From the IMG/VR virus record IMGVR_UViG_2706794687_000012: 7,825 nt of DNA; one strand, written 5' to 3'. Positions 1 to 7,825 of the stretch are shown here, one piece after another. Made by a program: the position numbers and the translations under genes. How positions within the stretch are numbered: position 1 is the first letter of the stretch; each line of letters opens with the position of its first letter. Below the pieces are notes generated by a model that searched no databases, was not told the origin of the DNA, and worked only from the letters and a program-made list of their open reading frames with translations. This DNA comes from a virus. Its lineage: Duplodnaviria > Heunggongvirae > Uroviricota > Caudoviricetes.

Positions 1-70
1 TCAATGATCGGAAGTATGCCAAATCGTGATCGATTGTGATGCCAAACTGTGATCGGAGATGGATGCCAAA

Positions 71-877
<807 letters not shown>

Positions 878-3152: not shown

Positions 3153-3250
3153 TCATGTTTCACCTCTTTAAGTGTTCATATACGAAAAAGGGAAAGACTA
3201 CCGATATCACTCGATAATCTCTCCCGTAGATTTTCACCCAACCAATCTTG

Positions 3251-3457
3251 TTACCTAACCAGATAATAATTACCATCTTCACCAACAATCTGACAATCAC
3301 TTGGTAATTTATCAAGACACCACTTAGCTATTTTCCTGATTCTATTCTTTTGCTTAGAGGAGGTGAATGATTTGATTCGTTTTGGTTTGTTGGGTTGTTC
3401 TTTCAATCGTTCACTAATTGCTTTAATAAGCTCATAGCGTTCTGTTAAATCAATCAT
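3251..3457 (-). CDS. Small basic hypothetical protein (68 aa) immediately upstream of tape measure gene
   Basis: Track ORF 3251-3457; ATG preceded by GGTGGTGG-tga; translation MIDLTERYELIKAISERLKEQPNKPKRIKSFTSSKQKNRIRKIAKWCLDKLPSDCQIVGEDGNYYLVR. No family recognised. Confidence 0.55.
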   Translation of the reverse strand: MIDLTERYELIKAISERLKEQPNKPKRIKSFTSSKQKNRIRKIAKWCLDKLPSDCQIVGEDGNYYLVR

Positions 3458-3481
3458 TCACCACCACCTTTTAATTATTAA

Positions 3482-4192
3482 TTAAATAGCCTTTGCATAT
3501 TTGCTAGAAATCTTCGTAAGCTGCTCAATATCAGCCTGCATAGCAATCTTCTTAGCATCTTCATATTCTTTCACAAGCTCTTTCATAGCCTGAAGCTCTC
3601 TTGAGAGATACAACTTAACATTATCAAGTTGCTTGTTACGTGATGCCAAGATGTTCTGTCTAGCAATTTCAGCGAGTTCTTCATCGCTCTTATTAGTCAT
3701 GTAAATAAACTGACCAGCACCTCTTGATGCCTTAACCATCTTCACAATTCGATGTCCAGCAGGAAGACTACTAATCACGGCTGCGACGTTTTCTTGAAAA
3801 GTACCAAAACCATCATTATCTTCGTATTGGTAATAGACAAATGGTTTCTGTGACAATTCATCCTGAATCTCAAATTCTGACGGCTCAATAGCTGATTGCA
3901 TCAAGGTAACTTTGCTGTAAGCGTCATCTAATCTAAGGCGCTGTTCTTTCAGCAGTTGGTAATATTTCTTTTCAAGCTCAAGTAATGCTTCACTCTTGCA
4001 AATATCAGGCATCTCTTGAGGCTCAGGAGACACAAAGATGGTTGTTTTTGGTGACATCTTTAGCGATTGCTCAAGCTCAATACGCTTGTCATGCTCTTTA
4101 CGCTGAATAGTGATAGCTGGATGTTCAGTCTGTGGCGACCAGTCACTGAAGCTATCAATCACTTTGCCATTAATGTAAATATCATTTGTCAT
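3482..4192 (-). CDS. Hypothetical protein, 236 aa from the RBS-supported ATG; helical or coiled-coil-like; possibly a tail assembly chaperone or scaffold-like protein (speculative)
   Basis: Track ORF 3482-4240 (GTG start). I prefer ATG at 4192-4190 because of AGAAGAGGAAAAGCA-ATG (GAGG 7 nt upstream). The frame stays open upstream into the N block at 4252, so a longer gene cannot be excluded. C-terminal half has heptad-like charged helices (…ELAEIARQNILASRNKQLDNVKLYLSRELQAMKELVKEYEDAKKIAMQADIEQLTKISSKYAKAI). Confidence 0.7.
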   Translation of the reverse strand: MTNDIYINGKVIDSFSDWSPQTEHPAITIQRKEHDKRIELEQSLKMSPKTTIFVSPEPQEMPDICKSEALLELEKKYYQLLKEQRLRLDDAYSKVTLMQSAIEPSEFEIQDELSQKPFVYYQYEDNDGFGTFQENVAAVISSLPAGHRIVKMVKASRGAGQFIYMTNKSDEELAEIARQNILASRNKQLDNVKLYLSRELQAMKELVKEYEDAKKIAMQADIEQLTKISSKYAKAI

Positions 4193-4252
4193 TGCTTTTC
4201 CTCTTCTAAGCGGAAGTGTTTCAGTTTTTAAAAAGCACACCTGACAGCCTAT

Positions 4253-4562
4253 NNNNNNNNNNNNNNNNNNNNNNNNNNNNNNNNNNNNNNNNNNNNNNNN
4301 NNNNNNNNNNNNNNNNNNNNNNNNNNNNNNNNNNNNNNNNNNNNNNNNNNNNNNNNNNNNNNNNNNNNNNNNNNNNNNNNNNNNNNNNNNNNNNNNNNNN
4401 NNNNNNNNNNNNNNNNNNNNNNNNNNNNNNNNNNNNNNNNNNNNNNNNNNNNNNNNNNNNNNNNNNNNNNNNNNNNNNNNNNNNNNNNNNNNNNNNNNNN
4501 NNNNNNNNNNNNNNNNNNNNNNNNNNNNNNNNNNNNNNNNNNNNNNNNNNNNNNNNNNNNNN
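4253..4562. other. Masked or unresolved block (310 N)
   Basis: Run of n in the sequence; content unknown. Confidence 1.
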
Positions 4563-4579
4563 ATTAATAGTTTAATTCA

Positions 4580-4596
4580 GGAAGAGTTGCTCTTCC
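4580..4596 (-). terminator. Candidate hairpin (GGAAGAG-ttg-CTCTTCC) downstream of the small minus-strand ORF; weak or no U-tract
   Basis: 7-bp stem, 3-nt loop read from sequence; followed on the minus strand by AT-rich sequence but no clear T-run; abuts the N block. Confidence 0.25.
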
Positions 4597-4657
4597 CTAT
4601 TACCATCATCTCATGCTTAAGGTTATTTGTCAACAGCTTTTTAACAGATTGGTAACA

Positions 4658-4735
4658 TCAATTCTTATTTACCGTATTACCTACCCAGCAACCAACAAAT
4701 AACCCTAAAGTCATCCAGAGAATAACGAGTGTCAT
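4658..4735 (-). CDS. Candidate small hydrophobic peptide (25 aa, single predicted transmembrane segment), start overlapping the stop of the upstream gene (TAATG)
   Basis: Not in the ORF track (below its length cutoff). ATG at 4735-4733 overlaps TAA 4737-4735 of the 101-aa gene; translation MTLVILWMTLGLFVGCWVGNTVNKN; stop TGA at 4660-4658. Confidence 0.3.
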   Translation of the reverse strand: MTLVILWMTLGLFVGCWVGNTVNKN

Positions 4736-5040
4736 TACATCACCTCGCTGTAAGGGTTTAATTCATTCTGATAGGTCAAGAATACATTCAGCTTCAATAA
4801 TTGCTCAGGGCTTAAATCAAGTCGATTGCACTCTTCAATGATAAAGCGCTTATTGTATGGGTCTGTTACTTCCAGCTTGTGAACATAGTCACCAAGTTTA
4901 ATTTCGTTGATTATATGCTTGTCAATATACGTTGACGCTTCAAAACAATGCATGAAATAGATATTAAAGCCCGACCTGTTCAGGTCAATCAACCAATTCA
5001 TGGTTTCTTGGTCAACCATAATTTGCATTGGGTAATTCAT
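4735..5040 (-). CDS. Hypothetical protein (101 aa)
   Basis: Track ORF 4735-5040; ATG preceded by AGGAAGGA 8 nt upstream; in-frame stop 39 nt upstream of the ATG. No family recognised. Confidence 0.7.
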   Translation of the reverse strand: MNYPMQIMVDQETMNWLIDLNRSGFNIYFMHCFEASTYIDKHIINEIKLGDYVHKLEVTDPYNKRFIIEECNRLDLSPEQLLKLNVFLTYQNELNPYSEVM

Positions 5041-5093
5041 TTTTAAAATCCTTCCTGTATCGCATTCTAAGACGTTTTAACCCCTTTTTTAGA

Positions 5094-5351
5094 NNNNNNN
5101 NNNNNNNNNNNNNNNNNNNNNNNNNNNNNNNNNNNNNNNNNNNNNNNNNNNNNNNNNNNNNNNNNNNNNNNNNNNNNNNNNNNNNNNNNNNNNNNNNNNN
5201 NNNNNNNNNNNNNNNNNNNNNNNNNNNNNNNNNNNNNNNNNNNNNNNNNNNNNNNNNNNNNNNNNNNNNNNNNNNNNNNNNNNNNNNNNNNNNNNNNNNN
5301 NNNNNNNNNNNNNNNNNNNNNNNNNNNNNNNNNNNNNNNNNNNNNNNNNNN
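5094..5351. other. Masked or unresolved block (258 N)
   Basis: Run of n; lies between the stop of the 73-aa gene (5402) and the start of the 101-aa gene (5040); could hide a small gene or RNA. Confidence 1.
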
Positions 5352-5401
5352 AAAATAACGAAATGCTTTATTAGTCTGAAGTTGTACTGTGATAGTTTTC
5401 A

Positions 5402-5623
5402 TCAAGCACCCCATTCAGAAATAAGCTTAATTCCCTGCTCAAGCTGTTCAGGGTCGTTATAGTCGAGTATTACCAGTGGCTTTAATTCGTGTTTAAGCTG
5501 GTGGATTTGAGAGGGTTTTAATCGTTTGTTTGCTTTGAGGGTCACATCTTCAAATTCAGCATCTGCTAAATTCTGTCTGATTAGGTGGCGGCCAAGTGTG
5601 GAATATTGGAACCTATAACACAT
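5402..5623 (-). CDS. Hypothetical protein (73 aa), translationally coupled to the upstream 96-aa gene
   Basis: Track ORF 5402-5623; its ATG (5623-5621) overlaps the TAA (5625-5623) of the upstream gene as TAATG. Translation MCYRFQYSTLGRHLIRQNLADAEFEDVTLKANKRLKPSQIHQLKHELKPLVILDYNDPEQLEQGIKLISEWGA. Confidence 0.65.
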   Translation of the reverse strand: MCYRFQYSTLGRHLIRQNLADAEFEDVTLKANKRLKPSQIHQLKHELKPLVILDYNDPEQLEQGIKLISEWGA

Positions 5624-5913
5624 TAAACCTCCAATCTATCCGCCAGTTGATGGACCTTAGCGCTTAACACCTGAATCATTGAGCAACCTGCTACTGCGGA
5701 CTGTGCTTTGAGTAGTTCCAGTTGGCCCGTTGTGATTCTGATGGCCTTAGAACCCTCTGCGACGCCCTTAACGTTATCGAAAGGGCTAAGGTTTACCGAC
5801 TCTTTTAAAATCTCCCCAACAAGCGCTGTGTGCTTCATATCGGGATATTTGGCTTTGATTGCTGCCAGTCGTTCAAATGCCTCTGGCAAAAGGCGCGTAA
5901 CTGTGTGAGTCAT
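5623..5913 (-). CDS. Hypothetical protein (96 aa from the RBS-supported ATG; 106 aa if the upstream ATG at 5943 is used)
   Basis: Track ORF 5623-5943. The second in-frame ATG at 5913 has AAGGAGAT 7 nt upstream; the first ATG at 5943 has no obvious SD and sits about where the proposed minus-strand promoter would start transcription. Translation from second ATG: MTHTVTRLLPEAFERLAAIKAKYPDMKHTALVGEILKESVNLSPFDNVKGVAEGSKAIRITTGQLELLKAQSAVAGCSMIQVLSAKVHQLADRLEV. Confidence 0.7.
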   Translation of the reverse strand: MTHTVTRLLPEAFERLAAIKAKYPDMKHTALVGEILKESVNLSPFDNVKGVAEGSKAIRITTGQLELLKAQSAVAGCSMIQVLSAKVHQLADRLEV

Positions 5914-5949
5914 TGTAAAAATCTCCTTAAATCTCTTACTCATACTACA

Positions 5950-5978
5950 ATCTTAACATCTATTTAACATATTGTCAG
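5950..5978 (-). promoter_or_regulatory. Candidate sigma70-type promoter for the minus-strand 96-aa/73-aa operon (-35 CTGACA, 17-bp spacer, -10 TAAGAT)
   Basis: Minus strand reads CTGACA (5978-5973), 17 nt, TAAGAT (5955-5950). Its -35 overlaps the -35 of the divergent plus-strand promoter. Pattern match only. Confidence 0.3.
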
Positions 5979-6000
5979 TACCTCATTTACATGATACTAT
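5972..6000 (+). promoter_or_regulatory. Candidate sigma70-type promoter (-35 TTGTCA 5972-5977, 17-bp spacer, -10 TACTAT 5995-6000) driving the plus-strand small ORF
   Basis: Hexamers and spacing read directly; predicted start of transcription near 6007, RBS AAAGGA at 6038-6043, ATG at 6051. Confidence 0.4.
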
Positions 6001-6050
6001 GGTTGTAGGGGCTGATACAGGTGCTGTTTCCTTTCACAAAAGGAAAATTA

Positions 6051-6227
6051 ATGCATGATTTTTTCACAGCAATTATTGAATCTCATCGTTTTAGCTCGTT
6101 GGGCTTTGCGGTATTTATTGTGCTATTGGTGTTTTGCGTTATGAATCGAGTCATTACAAAAAAGACAAAGCTTACAATTCGACTTAAACTTCTTCGTGTT
6201 GAGATAGAGATTTCAGTAAATAAATAG
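6051..6227 (+). CDS. Small predicted membrane protein (58 aa from ATG 6051; 68 aa if GTG 6021 is used), only convincing plus-strand gene in the window
   Basis: Track ORF 6021-6227. RBS AAAGGA 7 nt before ATG 6051. Translation MHDFFTAIIESHRFSSLGFAVFIVLLVFCVMNRVITKKTKLTIRLKLLRVEIEISVNK: one hydrophobic segment followed by a basic tail. Divergent from the 96-aa operon and convergent with the 98-aa gene. Confidence 0.45.
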   Translation: MHDFFTAIIESHRFSSLGFAVFIVLLVFCVMNRVITKKTKLTIRLKLLRVEIEISVNK

Positions 6228-6234
6228 CTGGTGG
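6227..6234 (+). other. Chi octamer 5'-GCTGGTGG-3'
   Basis: Exact match at 6227-6234, overlapping the stop codon of the small plus-strand ORF; a near-match ATTGGTGG lies at 6262-6269. Confidence 0.5.
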
Positions 6235-6236
6235 CC

Positions 6237-6533
6237 TTACCGGCACTTTCCCTTGATAATATTGGTGGCCCTCAGATTACCGGGGTCACCGTCTTTTAAT
6301 CGTAGCTGGTGGACTGAATCCCATAAATCGTAATGATACAGCACCGCAAACTTCAAAGCGTCAATCTTTAAATCTGTCACATCATCGACGAAATAATAAT
6401 CCCTCCCTTCTTTCTTCGGTCGAATCCGGTAAACTTCCCCGTGAGTATCTTTCATCAAGTAACCTTCACGAGAAATGCTGTAACGTCTGAGTAAATAGTC
6501 ACGGTATTTTCTCTCGCCATTATAAGTTTTCAT
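6237..6533 (-). CDS. Hypothetical protein (98 aa), translationally coupled to the upstream winged-HTH gene
   Basis: Track ORF 6237-6533; ATG 6533-6531 overlaps TAA 6535-6533 of the upstream gene (TAATG); GGAGG about 9 nt upstream. Translation MKTYNGERKYRDYLLRRYSISREGYLMKDTHGEVYRIRPKKEGRDYYFVDDVTDLKIDALKFAVLYHYDLWDSVHQLRLKDGDPGNLRATNIIKGKCR. Confidence 0.7.
   Translation of the reverse strand: MKTYNGERKYRDYLLRRYSISREGYLMKDTHGEVYRIRPKKEGRDYYFVDDVTDLKIDALKFAVLYHYDLWDSVHQLRLKDGDPGNLRATNIIKGKCR
6305..6312 (+). other. Chi octamer 5'-GCTGGTGG-3'
   Basis: Exact match at 6305-6312, inside the 98-aa gene; second plus-strand copy within 80 bp of the first. Confidence 0.5.
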
Positions 6534-7471
6534 TAAAACATTCCTCCACCATAAACACGTCTGACTTTAACTTTTTCTTTCTTTGGCTCGGTGTGAGTTT
6601 TCTTTTTTGGTGTAAAAGTAAAATCATCGTCACTATCATCAAAGTCATCGAGGTCACTAACCTTGTTCTTTAGCTTCGCATTTCTGAATCTTTCTTTAAT
6701 TTCTGCTTTACGCTGTTCACGTTTCAATTCCTTTTCAGGGTCTTCTTCATCATCAAGGTCAACATCCGGTAATTCATCATCAGTGGCGGGGCACTGTGTG
6801 TTTTTATGGTCACTACTAGCAATCACATCAGAGATTTTATCTTCCTTTTTAACGACCTCTTTAGCAGCTTCACTATCAAGGTCATCTAAGTCAGATGTTT
6901 TAACAGTCTCTNNNNNNNNNNNNNNNNNNNNNNNNNNNNNNNNNNNNNNNNNNNNNNNNNNNNNNNNNNNNNNNNNNNNNNNNNNNNNNNNNNNNNNNNN
7001 NNNNNNNNNNNNNNNNNNNNNNNNNNNNNNNNNNNNNNNNNNNNNNNNNNNNNNNNNNNNNNNNNNNNNNNNNNNNNNNNNNNNNNNNNNNNNNNNNNNN
7101 NNNNNNNNNNNNNNNNNNNNNNNNNNNNNNNNNNNNNNNNNNNNNNNNNNNNNNNNNNNNNNNGCTGTAAGCTCTGTTAAAACCTCCGGTACTTCATCAA
7201 GTGAATAAACTTTAATAACACACTGATTGCTTGCAACGTTAGTTTTCTTGATTAAACCATGTGCCTCAAGTTGTTTCATACATGCAATCACGGATGTTCT
7301 TGTGATTCCAGCATACTGACCAAGATGAGCATATGAAGGGGTATAATATTGCCCCTTATCGTGATAAAACTTTTGTTCATTCAACATGACAGTGTAAATA
7401 ATACGGTCGGCAGCTTTAACGCCATTAGTCATCTGATAAATACGGTCATCAAACATGTGGAATTTTTCCAT
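6533..7471 (-). CDS. Winged-helix-turn-helix protein, putative replication initiator or replisome organiser (about 312 aa, middle 84 codons masked); charged low-complexity C-terminal region
   Basis: Track ORF 6533-7528; I prefer ATG at 7471 (AAAGGA 8 nt upstream). N-terminal part …RIIYTVMLNEQKFYHDKGQYYTPSYAHLGQYAGITRTSVIACMKQLEAHGLIKKTNVA… resembles the DNA-binding domain of phage or plasmid initiators. C-terminal part is acidic then basic (SDLDDLDSE…DVDLDDEED…SDLDDFDDSDDDFTF…PKKKTHTEPKKEKVKVRR). Reading frame is continuous across the 252-N block only if the N count is the true length. Confidence 0.6.
   Translation of the reverse strand: MEKFHMFDDRIYQMTNGVKAADRIIYTVMLNEQKFYHDKGQYYTPSYAHLGQYAGITRTSVIACMKQLEAHGLIKKTNVASNQCVIKVYSLDEVPEVLTELTXXXXXXXXXXXXXXXXXXXXXXXXXXXXXXXXXXXXXXXXXXXXXXXXXXXXXXXXXXXXXXXXXXXXXXXXXXXXXXXXXXXXXETVKTSDLDDLDSEAAKEVVKKEDKISDVIASSDHKNTQCPATDDELPDVDLDDEEDPEKELKREQRKAEIKERFRNAKLKNKVSDLDDFDDSDDDFTFTPKKKTHTEPKKEKVKVRRVYGGGMF
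6912..7163. other. Masked or unresolved block (252 N) inside the winged-HTH gene
   Basis: Run of n; length is a multiple of 3. Confidence 1.
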
Positions 7472-7569
7472 TATATTTTCCTTTTTAAAAATAAAACAAA
7501 GAAAGGGCTGACCACGTATAGTGACCAACCCCAGAGGGAGTGAATTAATTAGAAGATGGACTGATAAAG

Positions 7570-7700
7570 GAACTCAGAAGCCTGAGCGATTACGCGAGTA
7601 TTAACAGCAAAAGGAAAAGCCTTGATTGAATAAGAGGCCGTGAAAATCTGTCAATACCCTGACGCCTCCCAACGTTGTAACCTCTTAATGTTCTGAGTTC
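7570..7700. repeat. 10-bp perfect inverted repeat GAACTCAGAA (7570-7579) / TTCTGAGTTC (7691-7700) flanking 111 bp in the region upstream of the winged-HTH gene
   Basis: Read directly from sequence; a 10-bp inverted repeat within 300 bp is uncommon by chance. Confidence 0.4.
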
Positions 7701-7825
7701 TTTTATCACCCCATATAAAAACTATAACAGATGTGATTATAAATTGCAACAATTATTTCACAGAATAATTACTGATTGGTCATTTATTGTTCACAGGGAT
7801 ACTTCTTAATATCTGAATCACCTAT

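Follow-up and report, generated by a model that had tools for sequence, protein, structure and literature searches.

A chromosomal island of Escherichia coli and Shigella with tape measure and Dit-like genes related to Felix O1-like phages: a candidate PLE-like satellite

The stretch of DNA analysed here (the window; 7,825 nucleotides in length) comes from the IMG/VR record IMGVR_UViG_2706794687_000012, which is filed under the tailed phages (Caudoviricetes). Our analysis places it in a small integrative island found in the chromosomes of Escherichia coli, Shigella and other Enterobacteriaceae, which combines a recombinase and a replication module with two genes of a phage tail, one for a tape measure protein (TMP) and one for a Dit-like protein. 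The island is probably a satellite of Felix O1-like (Ounavirinae) phages that would make chimeric tails, similar to the PLEs, which are satellites of the virulent myophage ICP1 of Vibrio cholerae (PMC12987554). We estimate the probability of this reading at roughly 60%.

An integrative island bordered by host genes

A Shigella sonnei protein matches the 236-aa protein of the window at 100% identity, and the S. sonnei contig encoding it (locus L013; loci are numbered with the prefix L throughout) is 99.9% identical to the window. Past the gene for the replication initiator, this contig contains only the genes for a Dam methylase and a small resolvase, and the host genes ymdF and rutG-C are reached about 3 kb on. 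At its other side the contig, like the window, ends at an insertion sequence (IS). Copies of the island which are ~92% identical to the window are present in many E. coli chromosomes. In intact relatives the TMP gene is followed by a gene for a 262-aa 'phage baseplate protein' (Dit-like), by a gene for a large serine recombinase of 506 aa (PF00239, PF07508 and PF13408), which lies outside the window beyond the IS, and then by host genes (tonB or yecD).

The original prediction, made from the letters of the window, had noticed that a replication-type gene lies close to the tail module with no room for head or packaging genes, and had proposed to look for such genes in the flanks. Among all the open reading frames (ORFs) of the window, no capsid, portal, terminase or protease family could be matched in Pfam, PHROGs and NCBIfam, in agreement with the first part of this claim. 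The flanks, past the initiator in L013 and past the TMP gene in the intact relatives, also contain no head or packaging genes and lead into host genes. The scenario of a standard phage order continuing immediately outside the window is thereby not realised, such genes being missing from the whole element. With IS elements subtracted, the element amounts to ~11.5 kb of integrative island and is not a rearranged phage; a mosaic or rearranged genome, one of the explanations offered earlier, gives way to a discrete island with host genes at its borders and an integrase of its own. In its make-up it agrees with the general definition of a satellite, since it is small and integrated, brings along an integrase and a replication module and lacks a full virion gene set. 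Induction, packaging and transduction by a helper, which also belong to the definition, are predicted from indirect evidence, namely the phage-derived genes and cis elements. What would define a tailed phage or prophage is absent: no terminase, portal, capsid, tube or sheath gene is present, and host genes flank the island in L013, L002, L003 and L012.

At least three chromosomal integration sites are known for the island. It is located between tonB and yciI in L002 and L003, inside yecE with the gene halves at either side in L011 and L012, and beside ymdF/wrbA in S. sonnei (L013); the integration sites in island copies are non-tRNA sites. Matches were obtained in 471 of 5,426 complete E. coli genomes (~9%), with 49 of them covering at least 80% of the query, and all of them are chromosomal; none of the 644 E. 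coli matches is plasmid-borne. The island is also present in Citrobacter (locus L018) and at 65 metagenome loci, which together with the genome loci made up our family comparison. By source protein names only, the 236-aa protein occurs in Salmonella, E. albertii and E. marmotae, and a small protein in Kluyvera. Among the GTDB species genomes, a Dit query gave matches just in Citrobacter and S. flexneri, and a query made from a three-sequence alignment found no distant relatives.

Gene order is constant across the family. A small resolvase gene and/or a Dam gene, or an AP2-domain gene, is followed by the initiator gene, small genes which often include an HNH endonuclease, a gene of ~107 aa, the 236-aa gene, a gene of ~68 aa, the TMP gene, the Dit-like gene and the large serine recombinase gene. 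Two types of initiator (an O-like protein of ~320 aa or a 185-aa protein), at least three types of recombinase with 27–35% mutual identity and several types of TMP are present, and the recombinase, initiator and TMP modules are found in varied combinations. Most of the genes are intact and their lengths well kept: 53 of 62 TMP ORFs range from 680 to 729 aa and 47 of 49 Dit ORFs from 254 to 276 aa, with identities that fall to 37%, and the 236-aa ORF is nearly always 235–236 aa long. No other phage gene fragments were found between the island genes, no complete prophage carrying these genes was seen in any collection searched, and neither known RNA families nor tRNAs were found in the island.

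Several gut-metagenome contigs of 10.6–13.6 kb (L030, L046, L051, L067, L083 and others) contain a complete island and extend no more than a few hundred bases from its borders. Such contig ends would fit an island present in several contexts or in a free form, but a circular overlap is seen in none of these contigs.

Two tail genes related to Ounavirinae phages

The TMP of the window matches PF20155 (2e-21), TIGR02675 and phrog_4036 (4e-93). It consists of 726 aa as compared to 735 aa in the phage, and its best full-length phage matches are all Ounavirinae TMPs (29–34% identity). The Dit-like protein, in its intact homologue, matches PF21821 Dit_like (2.9e-20) and phrog_3721 (5e-130). At the nucleotide level, positions 356–791 of the window are 87–95% identical to more than 200 Felixounavirus records and fall in the gene which comes after the TMP gene in these phages (garuso_119 in phage garuso). 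The order of the two genes is the same in island and phage (garuso_118/119), with the Dit gene directly downstream of the TMP gene. The closest relatives and the probable source of both genes are thus the virulent myophages of the Ounavirinae (Felixounavirus, Mooglevirus).

The similarity is distributed very unevenly. Residues 1–50 of the TMP are 70% identical to garuso and alignment columns 351–400 are 68% identical, with values of 13–46% elsewhere. Over 45 islands, the TMP is 28–33% identical to that of garuso; between islands its identity ranges from 37 to 100% (median 50%). In the Dit-like protein, the N-terminal 180 residues have a median identity of 91% to garuso (range 76–97%) and the C-terminal ~80 residues a median of 43%, both over the same 45 islands. 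Codons 1–180 carry 32–38 synonymous as against 8–11 amino-acid changes. The pattern is one of constancy in those parts which should contact components of the helper and of fast divergence elsewhere, and among the sequence data we regard it as the strongest evidence for a function of these proteins within the tail assembly line of a Felix O1-type phage. It also marks the surfaces which are likely to matter, namely the Dit N-domain and two short segments of the TMP, with the remainder free to diverge.

The earlier suggestion of a tail-only or otherwise unconventional element holds as far as the word unconventional goes. A tail module it is not, because the TMP and the Dit-like protein are its only tail genes and are accompanied by a replicon and a recombinase; tube, sheath, chaperone and fibre genes were not found in the island.

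A hairpin at 3190–3225, located 38 nt upstream of the TMP start codon, has a folding energy of −30.2 kcal/mol (z = −3.4) and is conserved in all island variants including Citrobacter. In L002 the stem has a different sequence and can apparently still pair, as read from the alignment with pairs uncounted. The presence of this conserved hairpin between the 68-aa and TMP genes suggests that the TMP/Dit pair is under separate control, i.e. regulated read-through or separate transcription.

A lambda-O-like initiator with a predicted origin inside its gene

The unmasked N-terminal part of the window initiator matches phrog_8102 (9e-11), followed by phrog_428, phrog_270 and the 'O-like' phrog_8540, and also phrog_678. 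A full-length homologue likewise matches initiator and lambda-O-like PHROGs, so that the profile search which had been suggested for the winged helix-turn-helix (wHTH) protein leads to phage replication-initiator families. In L013, four direct repeats at an exact spacing of 22 bp (TTACTCAGTCAGTCAA and variants) are present at 7117–7205, and an AT-rich tract (7206–7260) comes directly after these iterons. Both lie in frame within the 317-aa initiator ORF, just past the winged-helix domain. The origin of phage lambda has the same layout, with its repeats and AT-rich tract inside gene O. This layout in the initiator gene counts against the alternative, raised in the original prediction, of a wHTH protein acting as a regulator and not as an initiator. 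From profile matches and layout, we read the wHTH protein as a lambda-O-like replication initiator with its putative origin in its own gene. A lambda-P-like loader gene does not follow it.

The counterpart of the iteron and AT-rich region is masked in the window (6912–7163). The masked block measures 252 nt as compared to 267 nt in L013; a difference of this kind, 15 nt, would be expected if the copy number of the repeats varies.

Non-coding DNA resembling phage sequences

Phage-like similarity is not restricted to the tail genes. In L013, the divergent intergenic region between the resolvase gene and the Dam-initiator operon contains a block of ~125 nt (5601–5725) which has 72% identity to an intergenic region, likewise divergent, in phages of the Ounavirinae. 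The block is also present in L002; its position would be ~8468–8592 in window numbering and hence outside the window. An exact 23-mer, CTTTTAAGATAAGAGATAGATAT, is common to the L013 block and the Ounavirinae intergenic DNA. The 22-nt core of this motif occurs once per contig in 7 of 7 IMG/VR contigs having it (~87–91 kb each), which argues for a unique site and not a repeated promoter consensus.

The second island type (L011, L012) contains different blocks, which are 75–97% identical to a non-coding region of ~1.2 kb near the conventional start of the Felixounavirus genome. In L011 the phage-like stretches are located at 15888–15945, 16265–16299, 17338–17453 and 18161–18216. Two copies of a 55-nt sequence (91–97%) lie at either side of the AP2-domain gene, the second ~30 nt from the island end. 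The phage-like blocks may be helper-responsive regulatory sites or mimics of packaging signals.

Two other non-coding features were observed. A segment of 200–570 nt is shared by all island types at the end away from the recombinase (L013 4387–4586; L002 24799–24998; L012 19942–20514) and is kept although recombinases, initiators and integration sites differ. Candidate roles for it are an attachment (att) arm, a pac site or an RNA. In L013, positions 5240–5310 contain repeated TTGTCTATAGC motifs and a CTACAG microrepeat (3.7 copies) adjoining the small resolvase gene; these repeats may be a res or crossover site.

Orphan proteins of 236 and 68 residues and other small genes

The 236-aa protein is the best-conserved non-tail protein of the island (median identity 83% among 45 islands), with about 5 full-length clusters besides its own among 1.8 billion representative proteins. 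The profile search proposed for it gave no match in Pfam, PHROG, NCBIfam or PADLOC, and a tblastn search of 50,697 phage records gave none either. Its AlphaFold2 model, with a predicted local distance difference test (pLDDT) score of 64, shows helices folded into a long hairpin, together with a small beta unit, and Foldseek returned only generic coiled coils for it (E>0.1). A role as capsid, tail or scaffold protein was considered and rejected, as no BLASTP match to garuso structural proteins was obtained and the PDB profile search was empty. The idea that it might prove to be a major tail or capsid protein, which would have changed the picture given by the original prediction, has accordingly found no similarity in its favour, on a structure model that is moderately confident only. 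It shows no similarity to P4 Sid either (HHalign probability 0.6%). The name 'transposase', which NCBI/PGAP gives to it in hundreds of genomes, is unsupported by any transposase or integrase domain or fold.

The 68-aa protein is encoded directly upstream of the TMP gene in every island variant (43–100% identity). Its AlphaFold2 model (pLDDT 80) has a helix followed by a basic linker and then by a small beta-alpha-beta-beta unit, and no fold or sequence match was found for it, the PDB profile search included. From its position and by analogy to small proteins of other mobile elements, it could either inhibit the assembly of helper tails or serve as a small factor in assembly. PDB searches with the family profiles of the 68-aa and 236-aa proteins had no PLE chain among their matches, including 5IR0, the structure of the PLE1 chaperone (PMC12987554).

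On the opposite strand, the ORF at 6021–6227 has counterparts with 41–44% aa identity in L002 (21049–21243) and L006 and is uncalled in L013; a terminator-like hairpin follows it at 6227–6244. Since the ORF is kept despite an identity of just 41–44%, it probably encodes a real small protein, possibly a membrane protein and perhaps a toxin or an exclusion factor.

Organisation and state of the window copy

The ORFs bear out the order which had been read along the minus strand, i.e. wHTH gene, small genes, 236-aa gene, 68-aa gene and TMP gene. The ATG of the wHTH gene is located at 7471, the end coordinate given in the original prediction, and 3.38 kb separate its stop from the TMP start. The three masked blocks of Ns (4253–4562, 5094–5351 and 6912–7163; 310, 258 and 252 nt) sum to 820 nt, as had been estimated. 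The features of the window are as follows.

1–121, no strand: IS end, with terminal tandem repeats of ~23 nt at 5–125; island homology begins at 122
122–815, minus: Dit-like pseudogene, delimited by tblastn with the intact homologue from L002
972–3152, minus: TMP gene, 726 aa, intact (PF20155, TIGR02675, phrog_4036)
3190–3225, minus: terminator-like hairpin and T-run between the 68-aa and TMP genes (fold computation and conservation)
3251–3457, minus: 68-aa protein, present in every island variant
3482–4192, minus: 236-aa orphan protein, island-specific
4193–4734, no strand: intergenic stretch upstream of the 236-aa, 68-aa and TMP genes, masked at 4253–4562
4633–4605, minus: promoter-like site within this stretch (sequence scan)
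4735–5040, minus: 101-aa protein of a conserved small-gene family (101–107 aa)
5187–5402, minus: 71-aa gene, mostly in the masked block 5094–5351 (coordinates mapped over from L013 8858–9073)
5402–5623, minus: 73-aa ORF, uncalled in L013, 52–55% aa identity in other islands
5623–5913, minus: 96-aa conserved small protein
6021–6227, plus: 68-aa hydrophobic ORF, antisense to the main direction, kept in L002 and L006
6237–6533, minus: 98-aa protein, its start overlapping the initiator stop, 86–87% identity in L002 and L006
6533–7471, minus: predicted lambda-O-like initiator; winged helix at the N-terminus, C-terminal half acidic and rich in lysine
7472–7825, no strand: region upstream of the initiator gene, cut off by the window end 29 nt before the stop codon of the Dam methylase gene would be reached
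7556–7593 and 7677–7714: 38-nt imperfect inverted repeat within this region
7749–7721: promoter-like site in the upstream region of the initiator gene

In L013 the counterpart of the masked block 4253–4562 contains a 27-nt inverted repeat and is 243 nt long, 67 nt less than the 310 nt of the window. Since masked-block lengths differ from those of a locus which is otherwise 99.9% identical, indels are present there in the source of the window.

The IS end of the window is 98.5% identical to IS copies on S. sonnei plasmids and is read, from its sequence, as IS21-family-like. The insertion cuts the last 6 codons off the Dit-like gene, which is in addition frameshifted by a 74-nt deletion at 667/668 relative to both L002 and phage garuso; residues 1–49 are in one frame (815–669) and residues 75–256 in another (667–122). 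By its sequence the Dit-like gene of this copy is dead. Intact are the TMP, 68-aa and 236-aa genes, as is the initiator gene where it is unmasked. Because the Dit-like gene is lost to frameshift and IS insertion, the window copy is probably no longer a functional satellite. IS-driven genome decay is typical of S. sonnei, and the window copy fits this.

IS21-family elements (ISEc12, IS100 and the IS end of the window) recur in the islands, where they are found in the recombinase gene, the TMP gene and intergenic DNA (window 1–121; L002 11104–13406; L011; L012 16405–18206; L018 7036–8837). The islands may be a preferred target of these elements or may often decay.

Proposed mechanism and alternative explanations

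According to the satellite model, infection by the helper would switch the island on, possibly via the phage-like cis elements, upon which it would excise and replicate from its own origin. It would then supply its own TMP and Dit-like protein, and the conserved Dit N-domain, the TMP N-terminus and the central TMP motif would dock into the tube, sheath, baseplate and chaperones of the helper, giving rise to chimeric tails. The island would be packaged in helper capsids, and the 236-aa and ~68-aa proteins may redirect or inhibit helper assembly, of the capsid or of the tail.

Several observations weigh against this model. Induction, excision, replication and packaging are steps predicted from sequence, and neither a packaging function (small terminase, pac, cos) nor a capsid-size redirector was identified in the island. 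No tail assembly chaperone was found in it; the 68-aa protein was considered as one and rejected, its modelled fold being unlike chaperones and its searches giving no matches. A tblastn search of phages with the island initiator gave no match, and hence no phage nuclease carrying the initiator DNA-binding domain, of the kind which backs the satellite reading in the cases of ICP1/PLE and Justusliebigvirus. In Pfam the initiator has weak matches to HTH and DnaD_N only and none to RepA_N. Circular overlap is absent in 21 full-length metagenome contigs, and the IMG/VR matches appear from their identifiers to be provirus calls in isolate genomes. Finally, many copies, the window included, carry IS elements, which could indicate decay.

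A more far-reaching version of the model, which we put forward as tentative, joins these elements together. In this version the islands are an enterobacterial family of tail-hijacking satellites with a specificity for Felix O1-like virulent phages; the family senses infection through a copied, unique piece of phage cis-DNA placed before the replication operon, and the half-identical Dit, its N-domain like that of the helper and its C-domain private, and the private TMP allow satellite tails to work and poison those of the helper. The 236-aa protein would be a new kind of capsid or packaging redirector.

The main rival, which we consider unlikely but deserving of attention, is a pure anti-phage defence island which is not transduced. 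Here the TMP and the Dit-like protein would be dominant-negative 'poison subunits' that enter Felix O1-like tail assembly via the Dit N-domain, the 68-aa and 236-aa proteins would perhaps be tail inhibitors similar to Rta, Tai and Tab, and the recombinase and replicon would only amplify or maintain the island. A Dit N-domain nearly identical to that of the phage, joined to a divergent C-domain and TMP body, has indeed the look of a poison subunit, and a TMP diversifying so fast (median 50% between islands) resembles an arms race. Interference with tail assembly is moreover an established strategy, and the PLE11 protein Rta works without the satellite genome (PMC12987554; PMC11364771); the lack of packaging or capsid functions among the island genes points in the same direction. 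However, none of 10 island proteins matches a PADLOC defence model. The possession of an origin, of recombinases with several att specificities and of shuffled modules suggests frequent horizontal transfer, for which a vehicle is needed, and a TMP length kept at 680–729 aa (735 in the phage) suggests a working ruler rather than a blocker. The defence reading is compatible with the satellite reading, as PLE does both.

It is improbable that the island is an inert, decaying remnant of an unknown temperate Felix O1-like relative or of an old recombination event, with tail genes that are functionless now. The IS insertion and the frameshifted Dit gene of the window, and the IS21-family and other IS elements interrupting many copies, would agree with decay. 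However, the same compact gene set is found at no fewer than three sites with different recombinases, most of ~60 loci have kept intact ORFs for TMP and Dit at identities down to 37%, and synonymous changes far exceed amino-acid changes in the Dit N-domain. A remnant would also be difficult to reconcile with the absence of other phage gene fragments and of any complete prophage with these genes in the collections searched.

Least probable of all is an integrative element mobilised otherwise (by conjugative hitch-hiking or helper-independent transfer) with phage-derived genes as mere cargo, since, although its backbone (large serine recombinase, small resolvase, replicon of plasmid or phage type) is generic for mobile elements, no relaxase, oriT-related or conjugation family is matched (Pfam, PHROGs, NCBIfam), 0 of 644 E. 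coli matches are on plasmids, and the cargo consists of two adjacent tail-core genes plus copies of non-coding DNA of this one phage group.

Felix O1-like phages (Ounavirinae) are the classic typing phages of Salmonella and are common in cocktails for therapy and biocontrol directed at Salmonella, E. coli and Shigella. If it is true that about one in 11 E. coli genomes carries an island which parasitises or blocks them, phage host range, therapy outcome and gene transfer would be affected. The satellite reading, if true, would extend to the Enterobacteriaceae what was recently found for the PLEs, namely the rebuilding of helper tails by satellites which bring their own TMP and hub, and would provide a model system in a genetically easy host. 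Should the more far-reaching version with sensing, poisoning and redirection hold, the island would be the first experimentally tractable counterpart of PLE-ICP1 in E. coli and Salmonella, and would naturally confer resistance to a group of phages in wide use for the typing and therapy of Salmonella.

Comparison with known systems

In the literature searched, we found no paper which links satellites to Felixounavirus or Ounavirinae or which describes the island. P4 and the capsid-forming PICIs (cf-PICIs) are enterobacterial satellites of similar size, and tmp genes are present in a part of the cf-PICIs (PMC12987554, Extended Data Fig. 10). However, no homologues of Sid, Psu, Delta or the alpha-primase were found in the island, it lacks capsid, portal, protease and terminase genes, and its presumed helper is virulent and not temperate. 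The replication module resembles lambda O and its origin, with which it shares the N-terminal winged helix and the four direct sites of ~20 bp plus AT-rich tract inside the initiator gene, after the DNA-binding domain. It differs in that no lambda-P-like loader follows and in the acidic, lysine-rich and low-complexity C-terminal half of the protein, the origin of the island being a predicted one.

Small proteins of mobile elements which block tail assembly are known from PLE11 (Rta), from PICIs and prophages (Tai; PMC11364771) and as Tab (PMC10884400). In some cases the element also encodes a tail component which is resistant to them, and the 68-aa gene of the island is in a matching position, but no sequence or fold similarity of its protein to them was found (PADLOC, PDB and fold searches).

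Barth et al. (2023) predicted 224 E. coli satellites associated with Justusliebigvirus, which carry TMP, baseplate, capsid and decoration genes (PMC10448857). These satellites (L004 is an example) share the host species with the island, likewise miss most tail genes and have their genes in the same order as the island: an integrase, a 'phage baseplate protein', a TMP-like protein, a protein of ~65 aa, a larger gene, small genes, an initiator and a small resolvase. The small resolvase of L004 is 65% identical to that of the island and is its sole BLASTP-similar protein. In contrast to the serine recombinase and non-tRNA sites of the island, they use a tyrosine integrase beside a tRNA gene; they have capsid and decoration genes, for which the island has no match; and their initiator has a RepA_N domain in common with a phage T5orf172 nuclease, whereas the island initiator has no phage match. 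Their tail genes also relate to another phage group. Membership in this family was rejected, as the resolvase alone is similar and the checked island genomes are missing from Table S6 (PMC10448857).

We infer that the island belongs with the satellites of virulent myophages which carry a partial tail module, and among these the PLEs come nearest. PLEs encode a recombinase of the large serine type and an initiator which binds iterons, and their own TMP, chaperone and baseplate hub, which are 20%, 20% and 41% identical to those of ICP1, are built into chimeric tails; PLE11 in addition encodes Rta, an 80-aa inhibitor of the helper TMP which remains active when the genome of the satellite has been destroyed (PMC12987554). 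The island, whose presumed helper is also a virulent myophage, resembles them in its small size, large serine recombinase, iterons with a putative iteron-binding initiator, and swappable modules. Both have their own TMP and a hub-type protein, with a TMP distant from that of the helper (20% in PLE, 28–33% in the island), and both have small orphan genes beside the TMP gene, of which the TMP-targeting Rta of PLE11 is one.

The two differ in several respects. The island initiator is lambda-O-like, with the predicted origin within its gene, and not RepA_N by Pfam; no homologue of the tail assembly chaperone was found in the island; and its Dit N-domain is ~91% identical to the helper protein as compared to 41% for the PLE protein BhuB. 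The host is one of the Enterobacteriaceae and the presumed helper one of the Ounavirinae, and the likeness is one of gene content, the island being known from sequence alone. With these differences, the PLEs appear to be the closest known analogue of the island.

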